Part shown: positions 12,961 to 45,265 of the stretch, piece by piece
How positions within the stretch are numbered: position 1 is the first letter of the stretch
How the letters are laid out: each line of letters starts with the position of its first letter
Assembly: GCA_040954595.2 (NCBI GenBank)
Contig: CM082587.2
Location: 11,227,403-11,291,402, forward strand
DNA length: 64,000 nucleotides
From: Balanoglossus misakiensis
Taxonomy: Eukaryota > Animalia > Hemichordata
Reading direction: 5' to 3'
Notes under the pieces: generated by a model
What the model was told of the DNA's origin: nothing
Database searches by the model: none
What the model saw: only the letters and a program-made list of their open reading frames with translations
Translations under genes and position numbers: made by a program

Positions 12961-13299
12961 GGGTGATTTTAGACTCAACTTCTGTTCTACAGGTTCGCTT
13001 TTTAACCATTTCAATTTTTCAAGTTCAAATTGTCTGTAACTGGTTAATTTTTCTTGTTCGAATTGCCTGTCTTTCTCTCTCTGTCTTTCAGCTGACATTA
13101 ACTTTTCCTGTTCAAACTCTAGTGTACGCAAAGTTACTTCAGTTTCCAATTTATCAGCTTCTCGTTTTGCCTGTCTCTCTTCACGTGCTCTGTTTTGTTG
13201 TTCTCGTGCTATGTTTTGTTGTTCTTTTATGAAATCAGCAAAGTCTCCTCCTTCTAACCCTATCTCTTCACCAACTCTCTTAATTTCAGCCAGATCCAT
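12961..13299 (-). pseudogene. gag: Gypsy gag N-terminal remnant (coiled coil), fused to the INT tail by deletion
   Basis: MDLAEIKRVGEEIGLEG...REERQAKRE starts just downstream of the PBS and is E/R/Q-rich. Confidence 0.75.
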
Positions 13300-14479: not shown

Positions 14480-15382
14480 CAAAAAATACCTGTTTTCTAC
14501 ATTTTCGGATATCTGATGGAGTATAGAATGCTCTTCGTATGTATATATCGATACAAATTGCACAAAAGACAGTCTAATTTGGCTCACTGCAGACAAAATT
14601 GCGTTTTACCAAATTTTCCTTGAAAATGTCATTTTTAGAAAAACAATTAAAACAAGCTTTAATTGTTCTTCGAATTCGGTGCCCTGATTATATATGACAT
14701 GTTGATTGTATGTTAAAAGTTTCGACCACTCCAAAAATGCAGAGATATAGACGGAATTCAAGAAAAAATAGCCATTTTGGCCATATTATGACAAAAATGG
14801 TAAATTTTTAAAAAAATCATAAAAAAATAACTCTTTTCTTCATTTTCGGAAATATTATGGAGCATGAAGTGTCGTTCTCTTGTAAAAAGTGCTGCAAATT
14901 CCAGAAAAGGCGGTATAATTTGAATCACCCAAGACAAAATTACCATTTTCGACTTTTTTTCGAAAAATTGTCTTTTTTACAAAATAAATAAGAATACATT
15001 CTTTTCTTAGTTTCAAACGGGTAGAGATACTTTCCACACGGGTTTTCTAACATTGAATTCCCGTTCATCAACTCAGATTTCCTACAGCATAAGTCGGCTA
15101 AAACCCTGACACTCTAGAGCAGAAACAGTTGCACACTGGTAACGTTGAACAAGTCGATTTTTCTACGGCCTGGCTCGGCTAAATCTCCGTCACAATATGA
15201 CAGACACTAGCGTACGTTAGCAACGGTGATCATGTCAGATTTTCTACGGCATGGCTTGGATAAAGCCCCGGCACTCTAGAGCAGACAAACGCGTACAGAG
15301 ACCACGTTGATCAAGTCTAATCTCCTACGGCTTGGCTCGACTAAAACCCCGGCACACTATGACAGACACTAGCGTTCGTTAG
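14480..15382 (-). repeat. Macrosatellite, reverse orientation
   Basis: Same sequence and orientation as 2270-3880. Confidence 0.92.
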
Positions 15383-15996: not shown

Positions 15997-18537
15997 AATT
16001 GTTTTTCTAAAAATGACATTTTCAAGGAAAATTTGGTAAAACGCAATTTTGTCTGCAGTGAGCCAAATTAGACTGTCTTTTGTGCAATTTGTATCGATAT
16101 ATACATACGAAGAGCATTCTATACTCCATCAGATATCCGAAAATGTAGAAAACAGTTATTTTTCGTAATTTTCAAAAATTTACCATTTTTGACCAAAATG
16201 TGGCTAAAATGGTTATTTTCGTCTTGAATGCCGCCAGTGTCACTGCTTTTAAGAGTCATAAAAACTTTTAACATACAAGCAATTGTTTATATGTGATCAG
16301 GTCACCGAATTAAAAAAATAAAGAATGTTTTGCCTAAAAATGACATATTTGGTGCAAAAACGAATAAAACGCAATTTTGTATTAAATCAGCTCATTCAGA
16401 GTGCATTTTTTATAATCAGCACCATTTTTACATATAATGGAAATTTCATACATCATCAGATATCCAAATATGAAAAAATGATTTAGATTTTAGGTGATTG
16501 TCCAAAATTAGCTGATATCTAATAAATGTAGTATTGAACCGTTCTGTTTCCACCCCCCCCCCCTACATTATATGTGGTACGCCGATGTCAGCTTACCCGG
16601 CAGTACTGAAGGCCGTGCCCCCAACTAACGTCGGTGTTTGAAACGCCCTGGTTAAATTCGGGCTTTCTCTATAAATTGACAGGCAATAATGCAGTAATAC
16701 CCGAACAAATGTCGAGTGATGACCCGCTGTGACTTTCCCTCTTCGGTTTGCCCGACTTAGCCAACGTCTTTGTACTAGAGTGTCGGGTCTTTTGCAGAGC
16801 CAGGCCGAAGGAAATCCGACTTGATCACCGTTGCTAACGAACGCTAGTGTCTGTCATGGTGTGCCGGGGTTTTAGTCGAGCCAAGCCGTAGGAGATCTGA
16901 CTTGATAATCGTGGTCAATGTACGCGTGTTTCCGCTCTAAAGTGCCGGGGCTTCAGCTAAACCAGGCCGTAGGAAATCCGACGTAATCATCGTTGATAAC
17001 TTAGGCAAGTCTGTGTCATATAGAGCCGGTGCACCAGCCGAGTCACGCCGTAGGAAATCTGACTTGATCAACGTTGATAACGAACGCTAGTGTCTGTCAT
17101 AGTGTGCCGGGGTTTTAGTCGAGCCAAGCAGTAGGAGATCAGACTTGATCAACGTGGTCACTGTACGCGTGTTTCTGCTCTAGAGTGCCGGGGCTTTATC
17201 CAAGCCATGCCGTAGAAAATCTGACTTGATCACCGTTGCTAACGTACGCTAGTGTCTGTCATATTGTGACGGAGATTTAGCCGAGCCAGGCCGTAGAAAA
17301 ATCGACTTGTTCAACGTTACCAGTGTGCAACTGTTTCTGCTGTAGAATGTCAGGGTTTTAGCCGACTTATGCTGTAGGAAATCTGAGTTGATGAACGGGA
17401 ATTCAATGTTAGAAAACCCGTGTGGAAAGTATCTCTACCCGTTTGAAACTAAGAAAAGAATTTATTCTTATTTATTTTGTAAAAAAGACAATTTTTCGAA
17501 AAAAAGTCGAAAATGGTAATTTTGTCTTGGGTGATTCAAATTATACCGCCTTTTCTGGAATTTGCAGCACTTTTTACAAGAGAACGACACTGCATGCTCC
17601 ATAATATTTCCGAAAATGAAGAAAAGAGTTAATTTTTTATGATTTTTTTTTTAAATTTACCATTTTTTGTCAAAATATGGCCAAAATGGCTATTGTTTCT
17701 TGAATTCCGTCAATATCTCTGCATTTTTGGAGTGGTCGAAAGTTTTAACATACAATCAACATGTCATATATGATCAGGGCACCCAATTCGAAGAACAAAG
17801 GTTTTTTTAGCCAACGTCTTTGTACTAGAGTGTCGGGTCTTTTGCAGAGCCCGGCCGAATGAAATCCGACTTGATCACCGTTGCTAACGAACGCTAGTGT
17901 CTGTCATGGTGTGCCGAGGTTTTAGTCGAGCCAAGCCGTAGGAGATCTGACTTGATAATCGTGGTCAATGTACGCGTGTTTCCGCTCTAAAGTGCCGGGG
18001 CTTCAGCTAAACCAGGCCGTAGGAAATCCGACGTAATCACCGTTGATAACTTACGCCAGTCTGTGTCCTATATATAGTGCCGGGGCATCAGCCGTGCCAG
18101 GCCGAAGGACATGTGAGTAGATCAACGTGGTCTCTGTACGCGTGTTTCTGCTCTAGAGTGCCAGGGCTTTAGCCAAGCCATGCCGTAGGAAATCTGACTT
18201 GATCAACGTTGCTAACGAACGCTAGTGACTGTCGTAGTGTGCCGGGGTTTTAGTCGAGCCAAGCCGTAGGAGATCAGACTTGATGAACGTGGTCTCTGTA
18301 CGCGTGTTTCTGCTCTAGAGTGCCGGGGCTTTAGCCAAGCCATGCCGTAGGAAATCTGACTTGATCAACGTTGCTAACGAACGCTAGTGACTGTCATAGT
18401 GTGCCGGGGTTTTAGTCGAGTCACGCCGTAGGAAATCTGACTTGATCAACGTGGTCAATGTTCGCCTGTTTCTACTCTAGAGTGCCGGGGCTTCAGCTGA
18501 GCCAGGCCGTAGGAAACCCGACGTGATTACCGTTGTT
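15997..18537 (+). repeat. Macrosatellite, forward orientation
   Basis: Same orientation as 54073-64000. It includes a deletion junction at ~17808. Confidence 0.92.
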
Positions 18538-18819
18538 GTTCTGTACTGTTGCTGTTAATAAAATGTTATGACAATCCCTCATTGTACTACATGTAATACT
18601 TAACGGTAAGTACAATATCATGCACATCCCTTGCTTTTTAGTAAAATGACATGCCTTCCCCTAGTTCTGTACTATAACTGTTAGTCAAATGTCATGTCCA
18701 ACACTCACTTTGTACTATAAGTTACCAATAATAAAAATGTCATGCCCTCCCTGCTTCTCGATAGTTGTTAATAAAATGTTACTCCCACCCCAAGGGTAGT
18801 AATGGTACTTGAACTGTTA

Positions 18820-21181
18820 ATACACAACTCGTCACAGATAGTACAATAGATTTAGCGGTTGAAATTTTAGAGAGCAACCTCATTTTGAGGTGATATTTTT
18901 GGGGTGGGGTGATATCAACCTATTGAACTCTCGGCATGATAGCAGAAATTTCACTCGACTTCGTCTCGTGATATTTCAGCCATCATGCCTCGAAAATGAA
19001 TATTTGGCGGTACGGTCGTGATATTGACTCTCGGCTACGCCTCGAGACAATATCACGACCTATCTCCAAATAAAAATGCAGACAAAACTACAAAATGTAA
19101 CATTTAAACATCTTAATATTTATTCAATTACATTCAATTTCTATTTTTGAATATGGAATATACAGTTGTTGTAAACCACATTGGACTTGACGTTGCTGGA
19201 GATTTCATGTTGTTTGACGTCGGTATTATCACTTTTAATTGGGGTTTCGCGATGGCTTTTGGTTGCAGCTGGACCATTTAAGATGTCAATCACCCTCTTC
19301 TGTTGTTCCTGACTCGAACGCTTGTAATTACGAACACCTTGAAATGTAAACAATAAATCAGTAAATCAAGAGATCATAAAGTGCATTTACTTTTTAAAAC
19401 TGTTTTGAAAAAAGGAGATACATGTACTCGCCTTCTACAGAACGATGTCCTGTGCGTTCCATAATTTACTGTTCATCAACTCCGTTTTGGAAAAGGCTCG
19501 TAGCAGCTGTAGCTCTCAGGCCGTGATTGGTAAAGTGACCATTTATCCCAGCTGCTCTAAATAGTTCAGGTACCACAGGTTGCAGGGAGTTGTGGCCCAT
19601 AGCCTGTTTGCTGAACCACACCTTCGACGATTCTTCGTATTTTCGCAAGGGTTGCAAGTAAAACGTACTCTTGTTCGCATTTGGTGGACACAGCGAAACG
19701 TATTTTTTATATAGCCGAACATGACATCTCGCTGGATTATCAGTATTTGCATAATGTTTCACTTCCTTTCGACGAACTTTCATGTGTTTTAGTCCACCTT
19801 GGTTGCTTTTTGACACGTCTTCCACGTATAGCAGATACGGAGTGTCCCCATCAGGTTCACGCAAAGTAATCTGAGGTGGGTCAAAGCGAAGCGCACGGTG
19901 TTCCTGTCCACTTCTGAGGGCAAAATGTTTCCCATTCAAGAATACCATTGTGCGGACAAGAACCCTGGGGGAATGGTCGCCTGGTAGTTTCATTTTCCAC
20001 AGTAAATCGATTTGCTCAGTAGATATTGCCTCAGCCTGTTTCTTGTTTGTTCCGATACCAATGCTAGACAGTCTCTTCATCTCTGCATCAAGAACCTGAC
20101 GGAAACCAACAAATTCTTGGTCGGCAAGAAAGTTTGTCCGGGTTTGTCTTTCGAAACATACATAACTTTGCAAGCCCATTATCAATGAGAGTACAGTTTT
20201 TGGTGGGTAGGGGTGTCCGTCGACTTTCCTCGCCTCCAGTACAAACTTGCTAAGCCAATACTGCAAATCGTCTGTGGACATCGTTTCTATACTACGAGTT
20301 ATCTTCACTTTCTCATCAGTTGACGACTCGACGCGAGTATTATTTCGGGCCATGGCCCATTCGTTGAAAGTCCGTAGCGCCCACATATTACGGCGTTGAG
20401 TATTCTTGGGAATGGAATTTTTTGCAACCCCCTGTACGCAGGAATCCGACACTGGGTCAGCAAACCGCCCTCTGGGAATGTCCTTTAACGAAATAAAAAA
20501 TGATTCAATATACATTCTTACTTGCATGTTCAACGACAACGTACACGATAAAAAGGTGAAAATGGCGGAATGAATAAAAGAATTCGTGACTCACCGAAGG
20601 AATGCTCCTGACTGCTATATCGATATTTTCGAAGCCAAGCTCGTTCAAATATTCTGCTGCTTGTGAGGCTTCAATTAACTCTTCATCAGAGATATCAGAA
20701 AAATCGGGATACACCTCATGCGCCATGCTGCCACTATGACACGTTCAGGTAGAAAGAAATTGTGCCTCGTGGCCGTGCATTTATATTATAAGATATGCCA
20801 TTGTGCATGTGTAAAACATGCACAGCCAATACAATTGGAAGAAACATTGCATGTGAGCTTATTACTAAACAATAATTGGTTGAACTAGGCAATATATGCA
20901 TCCCAGGTGCAAAACGCTGAATAATTAAATACTTTCCGTAAGTAGGACCATACCATTTTGAAAGTTAGGCTGATATCAACCGCTTAGGGTCCATACAAAA
21001 GATTTTTAAACACTGTATTGTCGGTTGAGGGGTGTTTACTTGTAGAGGGGCCTGCACCTTTCACTCGTTGTGTATGTTAAATATCGTATGACTACTTCGG
21101 CGTCATCCATAATATCAACCTCGGACTTCGTCCTCGGTTGATATTATGGATGTCGCCTCGTTAGTCATACGATATATATAC
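18820..21181 (-). mobile_element. Crypton (tyrosine-recombinase DNA transposon), 2362 bp
   Basis: The boundaries come from the empty site gaactgtta|gtaaaata at ~22143-22159. There is no TSD, and atac is present at both element ends. Subterminal hairpins lie at 18929-18993, 19002-19071 and 21081-21175. A DUF3504-type YR gene with introns is inside. Confidence 0.88.
19141..20726 (-). pseudogene. Crypton tyrosine recombinase (DUF3504 / ZMYM-KCTD1-like), 3 exons: 20726-20595, 20482-19432, 19337-19141; ~459 aa; one premature stop at 19466-19468
   Basis: Catalytic motifs ALRSGQEH, NHGLRAT, TGHRS and RNYKR; also EARKVDGHPYPP and C-terminal YNNCIF. Intron 1 is GT-AG phase 0 and intron 2 is GC-AG phase 1; both join in frame. 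Confidence 0.88.
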
Positions 21182-24046
21182 GTAAAATATCATGCCCATG
21201 TTCCTAGTTATGAACTGAAACGTTTAGGCTAATCAACTGTAATGGTCATGTACTTGGTTTAGTAAAATGTCTGCCAATGTCTTGCGTAGTTCTACAACTC
21301 ATAATAAAATGCCATGCCCTCCCCTAGTTCCGTACTGTAGGGGTCAATAAAACGCATTATCTGGCCACCCTAGCTCTTAAGTTGATCGTATGCCATGCCG
21401 AAACCTAGTTCTGTATTGTGACTTAGAGCTTAGATGGTCCTATAAAGCTTATTAAACTTGTGCACACTTCAAATAGGCCGAAAATGTCATGTGTACCGAC
21501 TGATAATAAACTGTCATTTCATACCAGCTATGCACTCAAAAAAATGACGTGGCATTAACACTAGAGGACGTGTACTGATCTGAGTGAATCAGATCCCGTG
21601 AGGAGTACGGTGCCCAGAGTACACGTGTACTAGTAGAGAAATGCCAAGTGTTGCTACATCTTCGCGCTTCGCCCGCCAAGGTCGCCATGCCCATCCCCTT
21701 GCTGTGTTAATTGATAATAAAATGTCGTACCCTGCCCTTGTTCTGTACTGTTGCTGTTAATAAAATGTTATGACAATCCCTCATTGTACTACATGTAATA
21801 CTTAAGTGTAAGTACAATATCATGCACATCCCTTGCTTTTTAGTAAAATGACATGCCTTCCCCTTGTTCTGTACTTTTGCTGTTAATAAAATGTTATGAC
21901 AATCCCTCATTGTACTACATGTAATACTTAACGGTAGGTACAATATCATGCACATCCCTTGCTTTTTAGTAAAATGCCATGCCTTCCCCTAGTTCTGTAC
22001 TATAACTGTTAGTCAAATGTCATGTGCAACACTCACTTTGTACTATAAGTTACCAATAATAAAAATGTCATGCCCTCCCTGCTTCTCTATAGTTGTTAAT
22101 AAACTGTTACTCCCACCCCAAGGGTTGTTTGTACTGGTACTTGAACTGTTAGTAAAATACCATGCCCATGTTCCTAGTTATGAACTGAAACGTTTAGGCT
22201 AATCAACTGTAATGCTCATGTACTCGGTTTAGTTAAATGTCTGCCAATGTCTTGCGTAGTTCTACAACTGATAATAAAATGCCATGCCCTCCCCTAGTTC
22301 CGTACTGTAGGGGTCAATAAAACGCATTATCTGGCCACCCCTAGCTCTTAAGTTGATCGTATGCCATGCCGAAACCTAGTTCTGTATTGTGACTTAGAGC
22401 TTAGATGGTCCTATAAAGCTTATAAAACTTGTGCACACTCCAAATTGGCCGAAAATGTCATGTGTACCGACTGATAATAAACTGTCATTTCATCCCAGCT
22501 ATGCACTCAAAAAATGACGTGGCATTAAACACTAGAAGACGTGTACTGATCTGAGTGAATCAGATCCCGTGAGGAGTACGGTGCCCAGAGTACACGTGTA
22601 CTAGTAGAGAAATGCCAGGTGTTGCTACATCTTCGCGCTTCGCCAGCCATTGCTCTCCGGAAAATAGGAGACTGCATGTAGTTGAGCGAGCACGTGCGAA
22701 CGGACGATGGTGTTGCTACCGTCGACTAGGCGAATGAAGACACAGCGCTAATACTAGTGTCTGTCACGACTATCACACCAAAACTGTCCTTTACTGTAAA
22801 TATAAAAAAGCTATTCAAGTCGGAGGAGTCTTTCCACTAGTCTTCGATATCGAGGAGCCATTTGTATCTGCATAAATTTGCATTTCCAGTCTCGTTCGCG
22901 GATGACTTGTTTGTATTTGTCAAAGGCGAGTTAGGCACGTGCTTAGTTTTTTGGGTAATCGTAATCGTCCATGGTAACTTATTTGTCTATTACATATTTT
23001 AATGTCATCTTTCTTATCAAGCCTTGATGTAAATACATGTTATTTTCGTAAACACCACGGGTTCACAGAGTTTTGCTTCCAGGATGTCTGCAGTTGAATA
23101 CAGCACACACATCTGCTTCTTGCCCCAATGTCAGAGAGTGTAGCAATACATAATGTATGGTAATTACGTATACGTCCCTTTCTCAGATCAAAATCATTTA
23201 AGTTAACAAAATAATGGTAAGTACATTAAAAATTAAATGGGGGACGAGATAAGGGTGAAGCAATAGTATTTCAAATAAAATAAAATCTAAAATACATGTG
23301 AAATCCTGGTTTGTCCTCATTAAACTAATTCTCGTGATCGTTCTCTCTATTGAACCCAACAGTAAATAAAAATACAAAAAGGTAAGCCAGTCCGGCCAGT
23401 GCTAACTTGGTCTGACTGGTACGCTGGAAAGGGAAATCGTCAGACAGCACTATTTTCAGGACAAGATGTCAATTATGTTTGTGCTACCGGTGGATGCAAT
23501 GGTCCTCTCATTGTATTATAGAGCTAACTATATTTACGAAATTCGCATAGCAATGCTATGTTTCGGCTTTACAACCTGAAGCCAGAGTTTGAAGCAATGA
23601 GGAAGGCTGTTGTTATGTTGACCTTCCAAATTTTTGGCCAATTGAGAAAATTATTCGGCACATCAAGGGAGAATTCCCAATAATCTCTGCCGGAACAGTT
23701 GAAAAAGGACAAATCTATCGCATATGTCCCAAAATGTCCCTGGCTAATTGGGCTGTGGAGACCGGCTGCATAAATGGGTTGTCACCTCAGACGAAATCAT
23801 TTACGGTGCGAAGTGTAATTAGCGTGCGCTTGGGCCCTAAAAAATGCCAGTAATACCACAGACAAAGATAATTGGTTCCTTATCCCCACTGCGTAGTATG
23901 TTTTCGTATGTATTCAAAGCCTCATTACGCAGCGATATCTTTACGCATCTCATAAATATTTATAAGGCATGAGTATAAATAGGGCAACATAATTGGTACA
24001 CTTAGTTTGTCACTCGATAACGGAGGAGAAACAGTAACACGACAGA

Positions 24047-25827
24047 ATGGATCGTCCTAACACTGTAGCAGATGCAACCAGGTCTTTTGCTTCGGCTTTG
24101 TCCCGTCCTTCAATTTCTGGTAATGCTGCTACTCAGGTATCGACTCAAGACAATCCTGGTGCTGTGAGGACTCCGGCTCAAAACCCTTCTACCAGCGCAC
24201 AAGTTCCTACACCTGTAGTAGTTACTGAAACAACCTCTAAAGAATCTGAATCTCAGGTGAGACTCAATATCATGTGTTTCTTTCATTCTGTTCAAGTTTT
24301 ACATTGCCTGATTGTCGAGTTACCCCTTTTTATCGTGCATATGCGGTCGGCCAAGTTTCAATGTTTCTGGGGTTACGTTGAGACACGGTTATTTGTTATC
24401 TTCGTTGAGAACATGAGTTTTCAGTTTTTGAACTGTTTGGTTTTTTAATTCGATCGTAGTCGTTCTGTGTACGTTGTTTCATTTTTTTTTCTCTCTCTTT
24501 GTTCCATTGGTGTGTGCGATAAGTTTGAAAATTTTTCGATTTTGCAATTCTCCTTAGCGCCTGTTTTATTTTATTTTCTTGTTAGTAATTATTTTGTAGC
24601 ATACCTTTGTATTCTGTCTTGTCGTATTCTTATTTTTTCCTTTTCCTTTTCATTCAGTTTTCTCTTTTGTTTTTTGTATACATGTGGTTGTTATATAGCG
24701 GCTTGTTACATGTGCTTTTAGGTGTTGTAGATTAGCGTTTTATACTTTTTGTTAGTAGTTTTTTCCTTTCCTTAGTTATGTCTTTGTTCACCTGTGCGAA
24801 GTTACGGTTTTTGCTCAGCGTTACAGGGACACCATCTTTATTTCCCTCCATTTTTACTTTTTTTTTAACTGTAATTTTGCTTACGTTGAGGGACGCAACT
24901 AGCGGTCTTGCTTTGTAAAATTTGCATACGTTGAGGTATGCAACAGGTGATCTTGCTCTGTGAAAATTTGCATACGCCGAGGTATGCAACAAGTGGTCTT
25001 GTTTTGTGAAAATTTGCATACGCTGAGGCATGCAACAAGTGGTCTTGCTTTGTGAAAATTTGCATACGCTGAGGTATGCAACATGTGGTCTTGCCGTGTA
25101 AAATTTGCATACGCTGAGGTATGCAACAAGTGGTCTTGCTTTGTAAAATTTTGCATACGTTGAGGTATGCAACAAGTAGTCTCGCTTTGTAAAATTTTGC
25201 ATACGTTGAGGTATGCAACAAGTGGTCTTGCTTTGTAAAATTTGCATACGCTGAGGTATGCAACAAGTGGTCTTGTTTAGTGAAAATGGTGCTAAGAAGG
25301 GTAATTGCATAACTTTAAAATGAAAAGAAGTGTTATGCTTGCTCACGTGTTGAAATAATTTATGCACTATTTTTCAGATGCCAGTGGCGTGTGCTTTGAA
25401 ACAATTGGAAGAAAAAGTGGAAAAGCTACAGAAAGCGGCAGACTCTGCGAATGTCGATGAAGCTCTGCAAAAAGTTATGGATATGGCACATTCTGGCGCA
25501 TCGAGATACGCTATCATCAATGCCCTGAGAGTGTTGGTAGACAGGGCTACCTTGGTGAATCACTCGAAACTTCAACGTTTCAGAGCTGTGCTAGCACAAT
25601 TTGAGAGTAATGATTTTGGGAGTGACGCGGGAAAGTTAGTCCTCCTTCTACTTGGCAACAAAGAGGAAGAAGAAATCGCGTCAAAAGTGGGCAAATTTCT
25701 AAAGAACACGCGCAGTTATTCTCGTCCTTATCAATTTCAACGCCCTCAAGGCAGAGGAAGAGACATTAAGTGTTACGTTTGTGGAAACAAAGGTCATATA
25801 GCCAGAAATTGTCCAGATAAGAAGTAG
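24047..25827 (+). CDS. gag: Gag-like protein with a C-terminal CCHC knuckle, predicted spliced (24047-24256 + 25378-25827, 219 aa)
   Basis: CYVCGNKGHIARNC. Donor CAG|GTGAGA follows exactly 70 codons, and the acceptor tatttttcag|ATG is in phase 0. Confidence 0.8.
24880..25285. repeat. 45-46-bp minisatellite (~9 copies) in the predicted gag intron
   Basis: Unit catacgctgaggtatgcaacaagtggtcttgctttgtaaaatttg, with the internal inverted repeat ttgcatac/gtatgcaa. Confidence 0.95.
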
Positions 25828-25942
25828 TCTGAATTATGATGGAATGACTGACTTGTACAGAATTGTGAATTGGCCAGTTCAGATGTATTTGATTCTCACT
25901 TAGAGTGTCATTGTTATGAGTGTGTAAAAGATAATTTGCCTA

Positions 25943-25983
<41 letters not shown>

Positions 25984-26262
25984 TTGTCTCATAACGTTTG
26001 ATGTTTGCATAATAAAACAAGGGTTTAACATGATGAATGTGTTTGTTTTGTCTTGGGTATTCTTGCTTATAATGTGCTCACCTTTAAAGTAGTCCATTTT
26101 TCATAGTTCAATAAACTCCCGGATAGGGGGGCCACTCTCTGTGCCCTCTGCATTTTGCAGGCCGGCCTTTCGCATGGTCCTGTCCGGGGGTGTCCCCTTA
26201 TGTTATCTAGAATGCACTGTTGGTTTATATTATAGCCCTAGTTTCTGTTTGTTCCTCATTAG

Positions 26263-29200
26263 ATTGTTCAAGTTTGGGAGTTAAAGAATCCTGTCAATAT
26301 CAAGCTACTTCCAAAAACTTCGTATGATTGGACAACGCTTGGGGGCACCCCCGGACAGGCTCCTGATGGTAACATGTTCGAAGTGTTATCTTTGGTCTCC
26401 AATGGTTTGAGAAAAGTATCTCTTAGTGAAATGTCATTCAGAAACCCAGATCAGTTTATTGCTGGCGAGCTGCACAAATACCCAGATGCATGGAATGAGC
26501 TTACGATGGATCTGGTAAATAAACATGAAATCATGTCTTGGATTTCGAATGGTGTGAAAGTGTCTCCATATCTACGCCATTTCTCAGGAGGTTTTAAAGG
26601 ACAACAGTTTTTCCATGATCTGCCTCCTCCTAGACAGTTTAACAATCCCCCTAGCAACAAGGATTTTGCTCCATTTATAGCAAAGACGATAGCTGACCGA
26701 TTAAAAACAGGTGCTGTTTCGGTTTGGGGTATTGTCGGTCGTGATCCTCCTCCTCATGTTGTGATGCCAATCGTTGTTGAGCCCAAGAAGCCAAGGATGT
26801 GTATAGACATGAGGTACTTAAATCTATGGATTCAAGATATTCCGTTCAAGCTCGACAAGTTGGTTGATGTTAGTCGTTACCTGCACAAAGATGACTATCA
26901 AGTCAAGTGTGATGATAAAAGTGGTTATGACCACATTCTTGTATATGAACCGGATAGAACATACTTTGGTTTTCAATGGGGGGAGTTTGGTTTGTGTGTA
27001 ATACTTTGCCGTTTGGGTGGAAGCTTTCAGCTTATGTTTATCATACTGTTGGTTACGCCGTCACTAGTTATGCTAGAAAGCTTGGGGTTCCATGTATCCA
27101 ATATATTGACGATCGCCATGTGGGACCTTTACTGGTATGTCACGACCGGTTAGAAAGGAAATTGTCTCCTTTTGAACGCGCAGAAGCTTCGGCTTTTATA
27201 TTAGCCTCTATTTGTGTACTGGCGGGTTATTTCTTAGCGTTACAGAAAAGTATCCTAACACCCGTTAAGTCTTTAGTTATGTTAGGTATGCAGGTCGACT
27301 CGCCTTTAGAGGCGTTCATTGTTCCACAGATTAAGATTGATAGATTTTTGGAATTAACGAATGATATTCTTAGTAAACGGGCAGTCCCTCTCCCTCTGAT
27401 TCAAAAAGTTATGGGGAAGTGTATGTCTTTCGCGCTTGCAATTCCATCTGCAAGATTATACATTCGTCAAATGGCTCTATCGGTGTCAAAAGCTCAGGGA
27501 AAAGCAACATTTCTTGTCCCAATAAGGCAAGAGTTAGCAGAGGAGCTAAGGGAATGGCAAAACATAATTGTTAATGCAGGTCCGTTCAAATGGCTTAAAG
27601 AAAGACACTATGCTCTTAAATTGTTTACAGATGCTAGCGCTTATAAATGGGGGGCTGTTTTACATCCCGATACCACCGTTAACGAGAGTATGTCAGTTGA
27701 AATAAGCGATTTCTGGGAGGATTCATTCCGGAATGAGTCTATAAACGTAAAAGAAGCAGAAGCTCTACACCGCTGTCACGATTGAGTTTTAACGATCATA
27801 GATCTTGTTTATGATTAAGTAAGAAGTCATTCACTTGTATGGTTTTAGTCCAGTATTGACATAGGTACTTGACCCAGAGTAAACAAGATTGTGTAATTGA
27901 TACATGTCAGAACGAGATAGAGATATCACGCGCTAAGTTCATGTTTAAGAAATATTAAGATGACGTGTTCCTTTTATGACTTAATACTTGACTAACGTAT
28001 TAATAAGGTGTGGTGAAATTTGAGATCACACTATTATAACGGGAGATCCGTGATGGGAGTCAACGAGCATGGATCGAGTCGTGTAATTCTTACGTGTGAC
28101 CAGTAATAAACCAGAACTTTGTGTTACTCGGAGAACTTGTTGTAAGTCTCTGTCTACGAAAGGTTTACGATCTGCCGGGTACCTCTCTCGGACTTTATGA
28201 ATATGTTGGGTGGAGAAGGAGATGGAGAGAAGTTACGCCGTCAACCTTCGGACATGGCTGATTTCCCGCAGAAGCGTCCGAAGGAGGTGAACGTCCGAGG
28301 GAGGACGGTCGGCCGTAACAACATGGTGTTAGATTCCGGGTAGGCAGAGATGTTGCAACTGATTCCTGAACCGAGAAAGAAATAAGAAGAGAAAAAGCTG
28401 GCGAAACTGACGATCCAATGGTCTGCTTCAGAAGGAAACGAGAACAGAAAAAAGGTTGGTGCTGACTGTTGACTGCATGGAATGCGTGGACGGGTTTTCA
28501 ACGATGGATCTGTTGTTTGATCAGAGGGGCGTCGTATCCAGAAGCATGTAGTTGAAGCAGTTCGGGCGACGAAGAAAAGAGGTCTCGTGGAATGAAGAAG
28601 GGAAGACTCTTGAATCGTCTGCTATCGCAAAAGAACTGTGATAGAATGATATTGAACTGAATAATCAGCCTTTTTAATCTATAGTTTGGGAGATTTGATC
28701 ATTGAAATATTGCGTGATCGTATTTTCTTTGTCTACTCTGACGTGAGTTAGTAGACGTGAGTTGACTGACCGTTATTTAACCGCTTTTGATTTGATATTG
28801 TTTTCCACCAAGTTTTTGCCTTGTTTTCGACATTGTAAATGTGTATTCTTTTGTTGAAGTGATGCCGTGAAGTGTAGTGAAGTTTTATAGGTTTTTGAGG
28901 AGTTGTTGAAGTTTTTGTGATGACCGCAAGAGAGACGGTCTGGTGATGAAGTCGTGATGTTTTGATGACCGCAAGGGAGACGGTCTGGCGTATGAAAATG
29001 GCCCCTTGAGTTGGCATGTGAGTTCATACGAGGGACAAGAGAGAAGTCCCAGAGTGTAGTTGATTTTATTGTAGTTTTACGCATCCTTTCACATAAGAAT
29101 TCGTTTCCATTGTCGTGGTTATTTTTGGAGGTGACAGTATGATGAAGTGTATTATGTTTGTACACAAGAACTATCAGACTTGATTTTTTTACGCGGTTAT

Positions 29201-30679
29201 TGACTGTTGAATTTTGCACTGGAAAAGAGACACTCTTTGACGAGAAGTCAGAACAGTGAAGTCGTTTTGAATTTTGACATTGAAAACGTTTTATGAGATT
29301 TTCTTCAATTTGTTTGAACAGGCTGTGATATTTTAAAGGTGATTATTGAGTTTGATTTTGACGTAGTTTATTTAAAACCGATTGCGCAGACCTGGTTTTC
29401 GTTTTCATTCTTTCTTTGATCGAACGTGGAAGTTCGATTATTGGAAAAGTGGGAAGTGTCACGATTGAGTTTTAACGATCATAGATCTTGTTTATGATTA
29501 AGTAAGAAGTCATTCACTTGTATGGTTTTAGTCCAGTATTGACATAGGTACTTGACCCAGAGTAAACAAGATTGTGTAATTGATACATGTCAGAACGAGA
29601 TAGAGATATCACGCGCTAAGTTCATGTTTAAGAAATATTAAGATGACGTGTTCCTTTTATGACTTAATACTTGACTAACGTATTAATAAGGTGTGGTGAA
29701 ATTTGAGATCACACTATTATAACGGGAGATCCGTGATGGGAGTCAACGAGCATGGATCGAGTCGTGTAATTCTTACGTGTGACCAGTAATAAACCAGAAC
29801 TTTGTGTTACTCGGAGAACTTGTTGTAAGTCTCTGTCTACGAAAGGTTTACGATCTGCCGGGTACCTCTCTCGGACTTTATGAATATGTTGGGTGGAGAA
29901 GGAGATGGAGAGAATGTACGCCGTCAGCCTTCGGACGTGGCTGATTCCCCACAGAAGCGTCCGAAGGAGGTGAACGTCCGGAGGACGACGGGCGGCCGTA
30001 ATAACACCGCACTTTGTTAGCTCTTGGAGATAAAATAGATAATCTACGATTAGATGTGGCTGTAGATTCACTTGTATTAGTACAAGCGTGGAATAATGGT
30101 TCTCCTGGTTCAAAGTCATTAAAACTCAATCAGATCCTCAAGAATATATTTCACGTAGCTGTAGAACGAAATGTATGGTTGAATTTATCCCATGTTAGAT
30201 CAGCAGCCAATCTTGCTGACTATGTATCGAGAAATGTAAACGAAAATGACACCACCCTTACTAGTACGGCTTGGCAGAGAATAAATGATCAGTTTGGTCC
30301 ATATGATGTAGATGCGATGGCCATATGTTCCAACGCAAAATTGTCTCGTTTCGTAGCTCCTTATCCCCAACCTAATTGTGAAGGGGTCAATTTCTTTGCA
30401 CATACGTTTCAAGAAGCCGATAGGTTGTTCATATTTCCCCCTGTATGCTTGCAATTGCCAGTGGTGAGACATGTAATTTCGGAAGGTTTATCAGCCACTG
30501 TTCTATTAGAAGTCCACAATTTTACGCCTTTATGGTGGCCATTAGTTAAGAAACATGGATCAGTCTGTGTGCAAGTTGCGTCTAAAGGAGAGGATAATTT
30601 CATTCTTGTCCCATCAAAAAATGGCTATGTTCACGCGAAAACTAAAGGAAAGTTATTTGCAGCAACTTTTGGCAGTTAG
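26263..30679 (+). pseudogene. pol: PAT/DIRS pol: RT, RNase H and adenine-methyltransferase-like domain; frameshift in a G-run at ~26980 and LTR-element insertion at 27774-30006
   Basis: KPRMCIDMRYLN, DDKSGYDH, LPFGW, YIDD, LFTDAS, SINVKEAEALHR|TLL, VAVDS, NLADYVSR, then FGPYDVDAMA...FIFPP. Confidence 0.9.
27774..30006 (+). mobile_element. Non-autonomous LTR retroelement (TRIM-like), 2233 bp
   Basis: 550-bp LTRs at 27774-28323 and 29457-30006 (TG..CA); 4-bp TSD ccgc; PBS-like tggtgttag at 28324; PPT ggaaaagtgggaag at 29443-29456; 1.1-kb interior without recognisable ORFs. Confidence 0.92.
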
Positions 30680-30766
30680 GCAATTACTATTAAAAGCTTC
30701 ATCTATTGAATAATACAGCTGTTTCAAGATTAAAGTTGTGTACTTCTACATTTTATATTTCATTAG

Positions 30767-32065
30767 GAATGTTGGTTATGTGGTACTCAGTTACTCTGCA
30801 ATTCTCCTGGTCAAGAGGACAAAAAACAGTGCCATATTTGCTCAGCCAAAGTAGTCAGCTCAGTTCCTTATCCGTCCGAGAGGGGGCGCACTCAGGTTGA
30901 TCTTGATATCATCGATGCTCGAATGAATGATCTACTGGGTTCAAAATCAGCTTATGAAATCCAGAAAGACAAATTGGTACAAAATTTGGAATCTTTCTTA
31001 AGTGGACTCCCTCAGCCTAAAGACCTTACTCAAGCGATGCCAGTAGATATTGTCAGATTTCTTATCCATAAAGACAAACATGCTCGAACTCAGGTTCATA
31101 TAAATACATGTCCGTTCCTGGGTAGTGTTACCAGAAAGTTTGATCAGTGTGAATGTCCTAAACGTCTACGTTTAGGCACCTTAAAAAATATAGCTGCTAA
31201 ATTAAAGTCCTTTTATGGGGTGATGCTAAATCTGGGTTTATGTAAGACAAACCCAATCGCTTCTACCTTGGTTGACAGATATATTAAGAAATCCGGTGAA
31301 GAGCAGGCCAAAGCACATATAACTCCTAAACAGGCCAAGCCGATTTTTACTAATAAGATAAGGATCCTTCTAGATTACATTTTAAGTAAACTAGTGTCTA
31401 GCACTTCACGTGTTGAAGCATACGTCTATGCTAAAGATATTACCATATTTAAGGTATTAATGATGTCCGGAGATAGGGCAGGAGATCTTGGCCAGATCAA
31501 AACTCAGGAAATCTTAAGGTTGCCAGATAATTCTGGTTTCATATTTAATCATACTTTTGGTAAATCTTTAAGAGGTGAACAGAGTAATTTATTCACAATA
31601 AAGCGTTGTAATGACAAGACGTTATGCGCCGTGAGTACGATAGAGGAATACATTAAGTTAGCGAGAAGTTTTGATATAGATTTACGGTTTGGTTATCTTT
31701 TTCGTCCAACAACCCCATGTGGTCAAGTTGTGCAAAAACCCATATCCTCGCAAGCTATTTACCAACGTCTGAAAACATATTTGCAAGTGTTAAATATTGA
31801 CCAAGGTGAAACTCCTCACAGCTTTAGGAGTGCATGTGCAATAATTTTAGCATTGGCAGGTTCACAGATCTCAGATCTCATGGACCATGTTGGTTGGAGA
31901 TCAGAAAAGACTGCAAACCACTATATGCAGCTCCATAAGGTTGGAAAAGCAGAGGCTCCTGCTTCTAGGTTAATAGATGCTATTGATACTCGTGATGATA
32001 TTACTCTTAAATATGAAAATTTGGAGAATATTGTAACTTCTTGTAGACCAGCCTTTTATCAGTAG
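30767..32065 (+). CDS. Tyrosine recombinase (phage-integrase family) of the PAT-like element; intact frame (first ATG 30923; open from the acceptor at 30767 with CxxC..CxxC)
   Basis: GDRAGDL, TPHSFRS, DHVGW and NHYM supply the R-H-R-H/W-Y residues. The 52 codons upstream of the ATG read ECWLCG...QCHIC without a stop. Confidence 0.9.
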   Translation, partial: ECWLCGTQLLCNSPGQEDKKQCHICSAKVVSSVPYPSERGRTQVDLDIIDARMNDLLGSKSAYEIQKDKLVQNLESFLSGLPQPKDLTQAMPVDIVRFLIHKDKHARTQVHINTCPFLGSVTRKFDQCECPKRLRLGTLKNIAAKLKSFYGVMLNLGLCKTNPIASTLVDRYIKKSGEEQAKAHITPKQAKPIFTNKIRILLDYILSKLVSSTSRVEAYVYAKDITIFKVLMMSGDRAGDLGQIKTQEILRLPDNSGFIFNHTFGKSLRGEQSNLFTIKRCNDKTLCAVSTIEEYIKLARSFDIDLRFGYLFRPTTPCGQVVQKPISSQAIYQRLKTYLQVLNIDQGETPHSFRSACAIILALAGSQISDLMDHVGWRSEKTANHYMQLHKVGKAEAPASRLIDAIDTRDDITLKYENLENIVTSCRPAFYQ

Positions 32066-34309
32066 CTGGTTCTTCTGTGAAAACTGTTACATTTGGATTT
32101 GTAATTTGACTGTACAATGTACCTGTAGTATAGGGTGAATATTTGCCACTTGTTTGTTCATCTGATATTTTGTGTCTGGAGACTGCTATGAATTTCTATT
32201 AGTTTCATTAAATATCAATGTGATTATTTTAGAGATGAATCTGCTCCATTTTTCAGTTTGAATGTGTATGGTTACCACTTTTATTCCTTGGATGTAATGA
32301 TGTTCTCATATGTTAATTGCTGGGAATGTTTCTATTGTTATGAGGAATGGGGGAATTATTTTGAATAAAGGTTTTTGATTGATTTAGGTATGGGTTGTGT
32401 GTTTTATGGTTTAGGTAGAATTATTACGCTTTAGGCAGTATGTGGACGGTAAAAAGATACCCTTACCCATTCCTTATAACAATAGGCTATATCATTGAGC
32501 TAAGTAATAAGGCTTTAAATATTATATTATTCAAAGCCTCATTACGCAGCGATATCTTTACGCATCTCATAAATATTTATAAGGCATGAGTATAAATAGG
32601 GCAACATAATTGGTACACTTAGTTTGTCACTCGATAACGGAGGAGACTCAGAGACAACGGTAGAAGCGCGTACATTTGGGGGTAGGCGTGGGGTTGTGGA
32701 GGTACTTTATTTAGCCTGACCCTCCCTCCCTCCCTAAAGCTTGTTAACGCTATTTTGCGCATGGTTTAGCCTATTAAAAAGATACCCTTACCCATTCCTT
32801 ATAACAATAGGCTATATCATTGAGCTAAGTAATAAGGCTTTAAATATTATATATTTAGTAGTGGAGTGGTCAAGGACCCCCTGGTTGGGGACCCTTGTGT
32901 TACGCAGAGAGGAAGAAAAACAGGTTGCCACTCCTCGCGGTACAGTGATTTTGGGTGGGTGGGCGGGAGTTTTCCATGCACCATTCGATGTGATGTGACA
33001 CCTGGGTGTATGCGCACTCCAATTATATATAGGTATCTTATGAATATTCATATTCAATCAACCAATCACTACGCAGTGTAGATAGTTCCTTATCCCCAAT
33101 GCATAGTATGTTTTCGTATGATTTAGTAGTGGAGTGGTCAAGGACTCCCTGGTCCCCCCAAATAATACTTCTTTAGATTCATAATCACCCCTTCTCTCAT
33201 GCCTTCTCTCCAAACCTCATCAACACAAAACAACCCCACAGCCATATATCAGCACGGGAGGAGACTCGAGCCCGGCTTTCCATCCCGTCCATCGAACTTG
33301 TCTAAGCAATCTGTCTTTCATTGCCTCTCTTGGATCAAAAATCACATTACGTTCCCATGCACTCATACCAGACATCGGGTTAAGAGACTAAGAAGAAAAA
33401 CCACGGGAGAAAATACTATCAATAATTTTGTCGATAAAGAAAATAACAGTAGCATAAGACACACAACCAGGGGGTTATAATTAAACCCCCAAGGCCAGGA
33501 AGAAAAAATAAATTGTTCATCGGAATCGCCGCTTCTACTTTGGATGATTTGGAATTTTTTTTGGGGGGGGGGATCTCGGCAAATATTCTATTTCCGTGTT
33601 ACAACATCCTTAGTCACTGCCGCTGGTGGCCAGAATATGTTGTGCAAACACCAACTGTAAAGTTAATTGCCTATGTTATTGTTGGGAAATATAGTATTGA
33701 ATTCAGTTACAAGTACATGTATCAGTGTATTTTGTCTGAGATATTTCTGGTAAAAAGGGAAACAATTATCTCGCCTTTTCTGCATCTGTGCAAATATGCC
33801 AGAGAACCGCATTTACTTTCAGCCTAAAAAATAAATAAAAATAAAAATATTCGCTCGCCGCTCCTGGACCTTGGTCCAAAAAATCTGATGAACAAGATTT
33901 TTTTCCTCTCTGGCCCAAGGCCCTTTTTTTAAGGCAAGCCAGCATTTAGTGAGCTGACTATACCTAAGGGCTATCGAAATAATAACATCAAATAAACATC
34001 CGGAAAGAAAACAAATTTCACACATGCACAACTGCATAATCAAATAATCATTACTATATCACATGTTTCCCATTGAAACACCTTTGCCCAGTATTCATAC
34101 ATAATTCATCACTCGTCAAATATTACATGTCTCTCAATAGGACAATCCCATACAAGTACGCACACCTGTATAATCAGCCAATCACTATGTGAATCACATA
34201 AATACTCAAACAAAATCCACGCATAAAAATTTACATGTCTCTCAACAGGACACATCCTACTTCAATATGCATACCTATGTAATCGGCCAATCACATGTCT
34301 CTCATGGGA

Positions 34310-40278: not shown

Positions 40279-43200
40279 CTAACGAACGCTAGTGTCTGTC
40301 ATAGTGTGCCGGGGTTTTAGTCGAGCCAAGCCATAGAAAATCTGACTTGATCACCGTTGCTAACGTACGCTAGTGTCTGTCATATTGTGACGGAGAGTTA
40401 GCCGAGCCAGGCTGAGAAAAATCGACTTGTTCAACGTTACCAGTGTGCAACTGTTTCTGCTCTAGAGTGTCAGGGTTTTAGCCGACTTATGCTGTAGGAA
40501 ATCTGAGTTGATGAGCCGGAATTCAATGTTAGAAAACCCGTGTGGAAAGTATCTCTACTCGTTTGAAACTAAGAAAAGAATGTATTCTTATTTATTTTGT
40601 AAAAAAGACAATTTTTTGAAAAAAAGTCAAAAATGGTAATTTTGTCTTGGGTGATTCAAATTATACCGCCTTTGCCGGAATTTGCAGCTCTTTTTACAAG
40701 AGAACGACACTTCATGCTCCATAATATTTCCGAAAATGAAGAAAAGAGTTAATTTTTTATGATTTTTTAAAAATTTACCATTTTTGTCAAAATATGGCCA
40801 AAATGACCTTTTTTTCTTGAATTCCGTAAATATCTCTGCATTTTTGGAGTGGTCGAAAGTTTTAACATACAATCAACATGTCATATATAATCAGGGCACC
40901 GAATTCGAAGAACAGTTAAAGCTTTTTTATTTTTTTTTCTAAAAATGACATTTTCAAGCAAAATTTCATAACATGCAATTTTGTCTGCAGTGAGCCAAAT
41001 TAGACTGTCTTTTGTGGAATTTGTATCGATATATACATAAGGGCATTCTGTACTCCATCAGATTACCGAAAATGTAGAAAACAGTTATTTTTCGTAATTT
41101 TCAAAAATTTACCATTTTTGACCAAAATGTGGCTAAAATGGTTATTTTTGTCTTGAATGCCGCCAGTGTCACTGCTTTTAAGAGTCATAAAAACGTTTAA
41201 CATACAGGCAATTGTTTATATATGATCAGGTCACCGAATTAAAAAAATAATGAAGTTTTGCCTATAAATAACCTTTTTTGTGCAAAAATGAATAAAACGC
41301 AATTTTGTATTAAATCAGCTCATTCAGAGTGCATTTTTTAGAATCAGCACCATTTTATGGACATTTCATACATCATCAGATATCCAAATATGAAAAAATG
41401 ATTTAGATTTTAGATGATTGTCCAAAATTATCTGATATCTAATAAATGTAGTATTGAACCGTTCTGTTTGCCCCCCCCCTTACATTATATGCGGTACGCC
41501 GATGTCAGCTTACCCGACAGTACTGCAGGCCGTGCCCCCAACTAACGTCGGTGTTTGAAACGCCCTGGTTAAATTCGGGCTTTCTCTATAAATTGACAGG
41601 CAATAATGCAGTCCTACCCGAACAACCCGCTGTGACTTTCCCTCTTCGGTTTGCCCGACTTAGCCAACGTCTTTGTACTAGAGTGTCGGGTCCTTTGCAG
41701 AGCCAGGCCGAAGGAAATCCGACTTGATCACCGTTGCTAACGAACGCCAGTGTCTGTCATGGTGTGCCGGGGTTTTAGTCGAGCCAGGCCGTAGGAGATC
41801 AGACTTGATCATCGTGGTCAATGTACGCGTGTTTCCGCTCTAAAGTGCCGGGGCTTCAGCTAAACCAGGCCGTAGGAAATCCGACGTAATCACCGTTGAT
41901 AACTTACGCCAGTCTGTGTCATATAGAGCCGGTGCACCAGCCGAGTCACGCCGTAGGAAATCTGACTTGATCAACGTCGTCAATGTACGCTTGTTTCTGC
42001 TCTAGAGTGCCGGGGCTTCAGCTGAGCCAGGCCGTAGGAAACCCGACGTGATTACCGTGTTAACTTACACCAGTCTGTGTCCTATATATAGAGCCGGTGC
42101 ACCAGCCGAGTCACGCCGTAGGAAATCTGACTTGATCAACGTGGTCAATTTACGCCTGTTTCTGCTCTAGAGTGCCGGGGCTTCAGCTGAGCCAGGCCGT
42201 AGGAAACCCGACGTGATTACCGTTGTTAACTTACGCCAGTCTGTGTCCTATATATAGTGCCGGGGCATCAGCCGTGCCAGGCCGAAGGAAATGTGAGTAG
42301 ATCAACGTGGTCTCTGTACGCGTGTTTCTGCTCTAGAGTGCCAGGGCTTTAGCCAAGCCATGCCGTAGGAAATCTGACTTGATCAACTTTGCTAACGAAC
42401 GCTAGTGTCTGTCATAGTGTACCGGGGTTTTAGTCGAGCCAAGCCGTAGGAGATCAGACTTGATCAACGTGGTCTCTGTACGCGTGTTTCTGCTCTAGAG
42501 TGCCGGGGCTTTATCTAAGCAATGCCGTAGAAAATCTGACTTGATCACCGTTGCTAACGTACGCTAGTGTCTGTCATATTGTGACGGAGATTTAGCTGAG
42601 CCAGGCCGTAGAAAAATCGACTTGTTCAACGTTACCAGTGTGCAACTGTTTCTGCTCTAGAGTGTCAGGGTTTTAGCCGACTTATGCTGTAGGAAATCTG
42701 AGTTGATAAACGGGAATTCAATAAACGCAATTTTGTATTAAATCAGCTCATTCAGAGTGCATTTTTTATAATCAGCACCATTTTTACATGTAATGGACAT
42801 TTCATACATCATCAGATATCCAAATATGAAAACATGATTTAGATTTTAGATGATTGTCCAAAATTAGCTGATATCTAATAAATGTAGTATTGAACCGTTC
42901 TGTCCCCCCTACATTATATGCGGTACGCCGATGTCAGCTTACCCGACAGTACTGCAGGCCGTGCCCCCAACTAACGTCGGTGTTTGAAACGCCCTGGTTA
43001 AATTCGGGCTTTTTCTATAAATTGATAGGCAATAATGCAGTCCTACCCGAACAAATGTCGATTGTTGACCCGCTGTGACTTTCCCTCTTCGGTTTGCCCG
43101 ACTTAGCCAACGTCTTTGTACTAGAGTGTCGTGTCTTTTTCGAAGCCAGGCCGAAGGAAATCCGACTTGATCACCGTTGCTAACGAACGCTAGTGTCTGT

Positions 43201-44589: not shown

Positions 44590-45265
44590 TGTGACGGAAC
44601 GGTCGGTCACCATGGTGATATAACTTTTGATTGACAGAGCCGTCTACCTCCACGTGGTAGACATACATCTCTTTGATATACTCAGCATTTGTAGGTCGAA
44701 CACATTATATTCGAAATAGGTCTCGACATGCGATATTAAGTCATGTTCTAGACGACAAGGACCCGCATTTCGTGTCAGCTATTATTATTTTAATTACTAC
44801 CAGAAACGGCGCGAAATATGCAAATCAAAAGTTGGTAGTTAGCCTAGTTTTGAGGGTTTTCAGTCAGTGTGGCCCAAGACTTCGTTAGAGACAGACCGTG
44901 TGGTAAGCAGCCCTTTTGATGTGCGCTTATACGATATCTTCGTAATAAAGTTGAACTGTTGTAGTTCTAAAAGTATTTCGTTGTATCGATGTTGATGTTC
45001 TTGTGGACTGTGGGTCGTTAAGCCCACGGATAGTACCACTCTCTCTCATAGTGTGACACGAACCCAATTATTCGTTAATCTGAGAGAAAAACTTAGCAGT
45101 TCTCCGATCCAGTGAGGAGCGACTGTTACATTGGTGGCAGCGGTGGGATGATTGTCGTGCTGAGAGAAACCTCAACCTCCTTCAGGTAATTACAGAGACG
45201 CAACTAGATTTCGTTGTCTGGTAGGACAACGCATCGCACATTGCGGTTTACCACACCGTGATTTA

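Follow-up and report, generated by a model that had tools for sequence, protein, structure and literature searches.

A tyrosine-recombinase (YR) retrotransposon of the hemichordate Balanoglossus misakiensis probably makes its proteins by splicing: one 70-codon leader exon is joined to gag and to pol, and likely to the recombinase as well, with the unspliced RNA as the presumed genome; use of the pol acceptor is likely held down by a stem predicted to surround it. For the family of this element, the route to the recombinase likely runs through the first 84 pol codons. The window is the whole 64,000-nucleotide stretch analysed (contig CM082587.2, positions 11,227,403 to 11,291,402), and the features of the element within it are given in Table 1.

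Architecture and class of the element

The junctions of the element match an unoccupied target copy at 33085-33153, with one junction base ambiguous. The absence of a target-site duplication fits PAT-like elements, as do a YR on the same strand as the other ORFs and the repeat order A1...B1-A2-B2 with internal repeats downstream of YR, the echinoderm form known from Pat1. The Gag has a zinc knuckle, also a PAT-like feature (zf-CCHC, 8.5e-7), and pol fits with reverse transcriptase (RT) plus RNase H followed by a Dam-like methylase; the pol pieces of the window give weak matches to RVT_1, RNase H, and Dam (Dam E 0.0018), all below Pfam cut-offs but consistent, while the intact relatives P0101 and P0102 give RVT_1 at 4e-6 and 1.4e-5 and Dam at 1e-3 and 1e-4, respectively. 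The YR matches ALOG (1.6e-17) and Phage_integrase (1.4e-11) and carries an N-terminal zinc ribbon (CxxC..CxxC) before the ALOG and catalytic domains, the arrangement of ALOG-type DIRS1-like elements; its catalytic residues are presumably R237, H351xxR354, H374, and Y386. Judged by architecture and domains, the element is a PAT-like, ALOG-type tyrosine-recombinase retrotransposon. A strict DIRS1-like placement was rejected, as no terminal inverted repeat occurs among 19 inverted pairs. A Ngaro-like placement was rejected on the weak Dam matches at the pol C-terminus; to our knowledge, Ngaro elements have no methylase domain. Foamy viruses are defined by LTRs, a DDE integrase, and env, and membership was rejected since none of these is present among the ORFs of the element.

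Table 1. Features of the element in window coordinates (a slash marks the exon boundary at donors and acceptors)
Feature	Position	Strand	Detail
Whole split-direct-repeat YR retrotransposon	23911..32852	+	ends match empty target copy
Repeat A1	23911..24028	+	TATAAATA at 23974; A1 = A2 over 118 nt, identical
Coding leader exon	24047..24256	+	70 aa, S/T/P/A/Q-rich; phase-0 donor CAG/GTGAGA
Intron 1	24257..25377	+	1121 nt, T-rich; GT..AG skip in X11, X19
Gag core exon with CCHC knuckle	25378..25827	+	acceptor ttttcag/ATG; leader + gag = 219 aa
A tract and poly(A) signals	25946..26115	+	35-nt A tract; AATAAA at 26011 and 26110
Stem 5' arm, intronic	26179..26197	+	19-bp stem, z -3.07
Pol exon (RT, RNase H, Dam-like methylase)	26263..30679	+	acceptor cctcattag/ATT
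84-codon pol segment	26263..26514	+	internal donor CTG/GTAAAT; middle exon of RefSeq recombinase isoform
Stem 3' arm, within pol coding sequence	26341..26359	+	19-bp stem, z -3.07
Nested non-coding LTR-type element	27774..30006	.	TG..CA, 4-bp target duplication; private to this copy
Recombinase exon (zinc ribbon, ALOG domain, tyrosine-recombinase domain)	30767..32065	+	acceptor ttcattag/GAA
20-bp stem enclosing AATAAA at 32364	32332..32485	+	32332-32351 with 32466-32485 in B1; z -2.66
Repeat B1	32450..32527	+	100% identity to B2
Repeat A2	32528..32645	+	identical to A1
Repeat B2, 3' end of element	32775..32852	+	

This copy is dead, its pol being broken by a frameshift near 26977 and by the 2233-bp nested insertion, which has 550-bp TG..CA repeats at 27774-28323 and 29457-30006 and is skipped in the contigs of three of the four runs considered below. 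A 46-bp tandem repeat lies within intron 1 (about 24870-25270). When the 210 YAG sites in 24260-32100 are ordered by a crude pyrimidine score, the gag, pol, and recombinase acceptors rank 4th, 7th, and 8th, and the four other sites scoring above 11.5 are all in the T-rich first intron. The first Met of pol comes 37 codons after its acceptor and that of YR 52 codons after its own, with the zinc ribbon (CWLC..CHIC) inside those codons.

Spliced junctions and the route to the recombinase

The original prediction listed the 70-codon exon with its donor, the three phase-0 acceptors, the codon counts before each Met, and CWLC..CHIC, all of which were reproduced exactly, and proposed that one leader is spliced to three acceptors. 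It did not mention the two breaks in pol, the split direct repeats, the second donor at 26514, or the 19-bp stem at the pol acceptor. Eight of 24 listed sequencing runs were compared. The gag junction 24256>25378 was found as an exact GT..AG joint in two of four probable-RNA runs, from two studies (X11, depth 46.7; X19, depth 11.6), and the short side of one X19 contig spans 222 nt. The pol junction 24256>26263, also GT..AG, was found in one of the four (X11), in a single contig of depth 4.7 with 26 nt on the short side. The nature of these runs is itself a guess for X10, X11, and X18, and X19 is of no stated kind. Contigs from the DNA-like runs X1 and X4 are unspliced across the three sites up to 27770 and lack the gag and pol joints. 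Leader contigs of the probable-RNA runs start near 23994-24031, and repeat A1 is likely the promoter, with a start at about 24000-24010. Gag contigs end at the A tract, where the tool trims reads, and the segment with the poly(A) signals is likely the 3' end of the gag mRNA. The raw RNA runs X23 and X24, of which about 6% was read, gave 32 and 8 reads with no listed joint.

The third junction, 24256>30767, was found in none of the four runs, the sole comparison spanning both ends, so the prediction held for gag and pol as joints and not for a direct leader-recombinase splice. Its recombinase acceptor is nevertheless used by all eight RefSeq proteins of sibling copies, joined there to the internal pol donor at 26514 and not to the leader (MDL/ECWLC in 8/8). 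These proteins consist of the leader, 84 pol codons, and YR; leader/IVQVW is present in five of the eight and the direct joint leader/ECWLC in none. RefSeq junctions are model output in which support by reads is not visible, and the donor at 26514 is unseen in reads; no loose ends at 24256 or 26514 occurred among the 11 of 16 listed, in a comparison ending at 27770. P0195 is a leader + pol protein. Another family, in P. flava, has a pol protein (XP_070561811, isoform X1) and a leader-gag protein (XP_070561812, isoform X2) whose accessions are consecutive, suggesting isoforms of one gene.

Direct splicing of the leader to 30767 in this family too, with the internal-donor isoform being minor or a product of modelling, is the less likely alternative. 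The phases are compatible, the internal donor scores low (3.4, compared with 6.6 for that of the leader), no equivalent of it was found in the 19 metagenome loci searched, and the leader donor is the only one in relatives that share the three acceptors; against this stand the eight RefSeq proteins and the recombinase N-terminus, which is remodelled here, as the acceptor is 1 codon upstream of the zinc ribbon rather than 14 as in relatives. An improbable alternative is that only gag and pol are spliced, the recombinase starting from an internal promoter of its own or at its first Met and the upstream AG being incidental. X10 and X11 contigs do run through 30767 unspliced, the YR junction was unobserved, and several database relatives have a Met ahead of the zinc ribbon; however, the first Met in the window falls after the zinc ribbon, no in-frame ATG precedes it in 31 of 39 relatives (eight have one), and the acceptor distance is fixed in most of them, as described next.

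Conservation in relatives

Relatives at 32-49% YR identity preserve the splicing plan. For the YR acceptor, 79 loci were reduced to 39 by removing 33 without an intact zinc ribbon match and seven near a contig end. Of the 39 loci, 37 have their best acceptor ahead of the zinc ribbon in phase 0, as do all 20 clusters by majority, and in 30 loci this acceptor lies exactly 14 codons upstream of the ribbon. Its median score is 11.8, compared with 6.4 for an upstream control whose phases are distributed 14/7/11; control anchors within the ORF are biased against phase 0, where TAG is a stop, so the upstream control was used alone. The acceptor trinucleotide is CAG by majority in eight of 20 clusters, and one further cluster mixes CAG and TAG. 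The gag acceptor is in frame in 11 of 12 relatives, with a Met directly after it in none. The expectation that acceptor position, phase, and the zinc ribbon before the Met would be conserved is thus borne out, while the accompanying caveat, that an acceptor TAG may merely be the stop bounding an ORF, falls for YR, since CAG clusters are common and the 14-codon distance is the same for both trinucleotides.

A low-complexity leader with a phase-0 best donor is present in eight of 12 relatives, a count that leaves aside L003 and L004, where the anchor was derived from the donor itself; a strict donor scan gave one leader in 17 loci and a looser scan more. All 14 named P. flava Gag relatives begin with a low-complexity leader-like region, and the leader exon is homologous to the RefSeq Gag N-terminus across related families. 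The best pol acceptor is in phase 0 in just 12 of 20 rows. A(A/T)TAAA occurs upstream of pol acceptors in 14 of 17 rows, a weak observation made without a chance control.

It is very improbable that the junctions reflect host mis-splicing of a dead element, or intron-less retrocopies, with no role in the life cycle. This copy is broken, and intron-less copies have room because contigs drop rare variants, but the homology of the leader, the conservation of splice signals at such YR divergence, and the predominance of intron-containing forms in DNA-like runs all speak against it. When the 5' ends of 16 short loci were searched for leader-YR forms that had already been spliced, genomic forms alone were found.

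The stem around the pol acceptor beats all 30 shuffles at 11 of 13 pol acceptors (families), compared with none of 17 YR and one of 10 gag acceptors, and shows two-sided compensatory changes as well as G-U pairs on the sense strand. This conserved predicted stem likely determines the amount of each protein produced. Alternatively, it may be a packaging, dimerisation, or reverse-transcription mark of the unspliced RNA and not a splicing regulator, which is a substantial possibility though the less probable one. The intronic arm would be missing from spliced pol mRNA and from gag mRNA ending at 26011 or 26110, and the arms vary in position relative to the pol acceptor (-28 to -112 and +74 to +146); in favour of splicing regulation, all families examined have the pol acceptor inside the stem, and in L009, L032, and L014 the stem overlaps the probable branch region. 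The two roles can coexist. For the 3' stem over AATAAA, consistent conservation in relatives was not found.

Expression model and known systems

In the proposed scheme, transcription likely begins downstream of the TATA box within repeat A1, and the observed splice to 25378 yields the Gag, on an RNA that likely ends at the post-gag poly(A) signals. Skipping gag and splicing to 26263, as in the one contig, would give leader-Pol, and an additional 26514>30767 splice, present in annotation models only, would give a 586-aa leader-PolN-recombinase; most relatives, without an internal donor, would splice straight from leader to recombinase acceptor, as their conserved signals suggest. The unspliced RNA encodes just a 133-aa dead-end ORF and would therefore be a dedicated reverse transcription template, copied by proteins from the spliced RNAs. 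Since the stem pairs intron with pol exon, it can form only in RNA unspliced at the pol acceptor, where it likely dampens pol splicing, such that Gag would be abundant, Pol and recombinase scarce, and some genome left intact.

The model offers a concrete, testable scheme whose junctions are placed to the base and which includes a candidate for a regulatory structure. In it, a retroelement retains spliceosomal introns through its RNA stage and converges on foamy-virus logic. It also implies that ORF-based annotation of such elements misses true N-termini, including the recombinase zinc ribbon. A broader reading, offered tentatively and with slightly less than even confidence, is that a wide clade of recombinase retrotransposons with split direct repeats in marine invertebrates uses retrovirus-like splicing with no protein made from genomic RNA. 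The low-complexity leader, appended to Gag, Pol, and recombinase alike, would then be a shared assembly tag, and the intron-exon stem a switch that governs the ratio of the proteins and identifies the unspliced RNA as genome.

A literature search found no report of such leader splicing, although Repbase entries and subscription reviews may mention splicing, and the passages cited here do not address DIRS-order ORF expression or the balance of coat, enzyme, and genome. The echinoderm-form Pat1-like elements (PAT-like, order DIRS; PMC4157794) are among the closest known systems, but introns and spliced expression are not described in the available text, where "intron" has 0 occurrences. The ALOG-containing DIRS1-type retroposons of marine invertebrates (Iyer and Aravind, PMC3537659) share the recombinase N-terminal zinc ribbon with ALOG and catalytic domains, the Gag zinc knuckle, and an inactive adenine methylase. 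That paper treats metazoan copies as fragmented and nowhere contains intron, splic, or exon, whereas here the ORFs would be exons of one transcription unit. Ngaro-like elements usually have non-overlapping ORFs (PMC3266345), which together with split direct repeats they have in common with this element, but its methylase (Dam E 0.0018 in the window and 1e-4 in P0102, both weak) sets it apart. In the plant Ty1/Copia element EVD, alternative splicing and early termination give an abundant Gag-only short RNA (PMC5580714); that is a single splice for Gag alone, while in this element splicing is also needed for pol and likely for YR. Foamy viruses (Spumaretrovirinae) make Pol from a spliced subgenomic RNA apart from Gag, at a level set by a suboptimal splice site, and also splice env, with upstream exons described as small and non-coding (PMC7828637). 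Here, by contrast, the leader exon codes for 70 aa, even Gag depends on splicing, integration is the task of a YR, and env is absent; foamy viruses are the closest working analogue, and the element is not a member. A new finding here is the predicted long-range stem, with compensatory changes, that brackets the pol acceptor.

Splicing of the leader to gag and pol

When the sequence was re-read, all coordinates and counts in the original prediction for the element's splice features were reproduced: the leader exon (24047-24256) has 70 codons and ends in CAG/GTGAGA, and the acceptors of gag (25378), pol (26263), and the tyrosine recombinase (YR; 30767) are all in phase 0, with 0, 37, and 52 codons ahead of the first Met, respectively. 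Translation of gag, pol, and YR by scanning of unspliced RNA would be implausible, since 23, 46, and 156 ATGs lie between the likely start (24004) and the respective first Mets.

Splice junctions were surveyed, over a span that includes the leader donor and all three acceptors, in contigs of four sequencing runs, each from a different study; the kind was guessed as RNA for three of the runs and is unstated for one. Of the predicted joining of one leader to three acceptors, splicing to gag and pol is shown by GT..AG joints (24256 to 25378 in runs X11 and X19; 24256 to 26263 in X11), while no joint into 30767 is among those listed for the four runs, and contigs of X10 and X11 run across that position unspliced. 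The X19 leader-gag contig covers 24031-24252 and 25374-25903. In the DNA-like runs X1 and X4, contigs pass through 24256, 25378, and 26263 unspliced, and two raw RNA runs gave just 32 and 8 reads, which are too few. Contig depth in X11 is 46.7 for the gag junction and 4.7 for the pol junction, a difference only suggestive of Gag excess because contig depth cannot rank parts.

Gene models and conservation in relatives

Splicing into YR, through an internal pol donor, is supported only by RefSeq gene models, which are annotation output. All eight proteins (10 accessions) of the recombinase cluster have MDL/ECWLC, and five start with the leader followed by IVQVW; the RefSeq form consists of the leader, 84 pol codons, and YR (586 aa), with donor CTG/GTAAAT at 26514/26515. 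The protein model P0195 is leader plus pol. A different Ptychodera flava family has consecutive accessions for pol (isoform X1) and leader-gag (isoform X2). In the 14 named Gag relatives from P. flava, whose identity to the gag core is 51-72%, the N-terminus is always of low complexity, mostly with the motif A..(S/T)FV.AH, which aligns with ATRSFASA of the leader. In an Actinostola gene model (P0138), pol is fused to a similar leader. A longer, folded-looking N-terminal region is common to the Gag and Pol models of molluscs (P0147, P0160 (Argopecten), P0180, P0136 (Mytilus)), which suggests that the shared leader is extended in these relatives.

Gag, pol, YR order is kept in 79 metagenome-contig loci with YR 32-49% identical. 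Of these loci, 39 have both an intact zinc ribbon and sufficient flanking sequence; the best YR acceptor within the 120 nt before the ribbon falls in phase 0 in 37 of them and exactly 14 codons from the ribbon in 30, and phase 0 is the majority in 20/20 clusters. Position and phase of this acceptor are conserved. The adjacent upstream window used as control (32 loci) gave phases of 14/7/11 and a median acceptor score of 6.4, versus 11.8 before the ribbon. An in-frame ATG ahead of the ribbon is absent in 31/39 loci. The caveat that the acceptor TAG is merely a bounding stop fails, because CAG acceptors occupy the same distance.

An in-frame acceptor precedes the gag core in 11 of 12 loci (top-ranked in nine). 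Pol acceptors are strong, the top one being in phase 0 in 12/20 rows, and several of the other rows are visibly frameshifted copies. A low-complexity leader with its best donor in phase 0, mostly GAG/GT, is present in 8/12 loci; as in the window, a tandem repeat often comes after the leader in these relatives. Since no conservation of the internal pol donor is seen among the relatives' loci examined, these would splice the leader straight to YR.

Structure and surroundings of the element

The element has the repeat plan A...B-A-B, and its ends are known, without target duplication, because of an empty target copy at 33085-33153. It is inserted in one copy of a short repeat (23875-23910, 32853-32885) with this empty twin 230 nt downstream, and a target preference is possible. 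The domains are zf-CCHC in gag, RT/RNase H/Dam-like in pol, and zinc ribbon-ALOG-recombinase in the YR exon; the recombinase is 98% identical to one RefSeq protein of P. flava. The window copy is dead, with a pol frameshift near 26977, where aligned contigs differ by a one-base indel, and a 2233-bp insertion (27774-30006) skipped by contigs from 3/4 runs. This insertion is non-coding, LTR-type, and nested in the RNase H region; its 550-bp repeats differ at seven sites, all within the final 95 nt. A DNA-like X1 contig skips from 25550 to 26160 (609 nt, including the 3' half of gag) and is a deleted family variant. The 374-aa frame 3.3 kb upstream of the element is a Crypton-type tyrosine recombinase.

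Repeats of the element and other elements in the window
Feature	Position	Strand	Content
Repeat A1	23911-24028		
Repeat B1	32450-32527		
Repeat A2	32528-32645		
Repeat B2	32775-32852		
374-aa open frame	19466-20590	-	DUF3504 (E 7.5e-38), QRICH1, weak phage-integrase matches
Gypsy-like LTR retrotransposon remains	45164-51998; 11618-13018	+; -	protease, RT, RNase H, integrase
Dispersed ~1.9-kb element	16554-18620; 41471-44500; 54692-63450		81-bp tandem unit; tandem and inverted copies
Inverted copies of the ~1.9-kb element	near 1350-5870 and 14790-15380		81-bp unit
Satellite	1-1340		130-bp
Satellite	9321-10160		70-bp

Predicted stems and proposed expression

A predicted stem encloses the pol acceptor, pairing 26179-26197 with 26341-26359 in the window (z -3.07; 0/200 shuffles). 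With Watson-Crick pairs only, an enclosing stem scoring at least 29 is found at 16/19 pol acceptors, and the highest scores are 23 in controls inside pol and 25 at YR acceptors (n=31). When G-U pairs are allowed, 11 of 13 pol family representatives exceed all 30 shuffles, as do 0/17 YR and 1/10 gag acceptors. RNAalifold recovered the helix, with two-sided changes, in all three MAFFT alignments, the regions having been picked to begin and finish near the arms, which favors the helix. Such changes affect 3/17 and 8/18 pairs of the long helix in the first and second alignments, and 17/34 of all predicted pairs in the third. The many G-U pairs point to the sense RNA as the strand that would fold.

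A second stem, of 20 bp (32332-32351 with 32466-32485), joins the 3' UTR to repeat B around AATAAA at 32364, and could permit read-through yielding genomic RNA; long 3' stems are present in some relatives, with the signal seldom enclosed.

Expression would begin at a single promoter in repeat A, with early polyadenylation after gag, and unspliced RNA, which codes for just a 133-aa ORF, would be the genome. The stem at the pol acceptor may restrain pol splicing or else tag the RNA as genome. Among the papers listed in the literature searches, none describes PAT- or ALOG-type elements being expressed through splicing. Splicing one leader onto gag and pol, and probably onto YR, is a genuine and conserved mode of expression within an element class that is already known.
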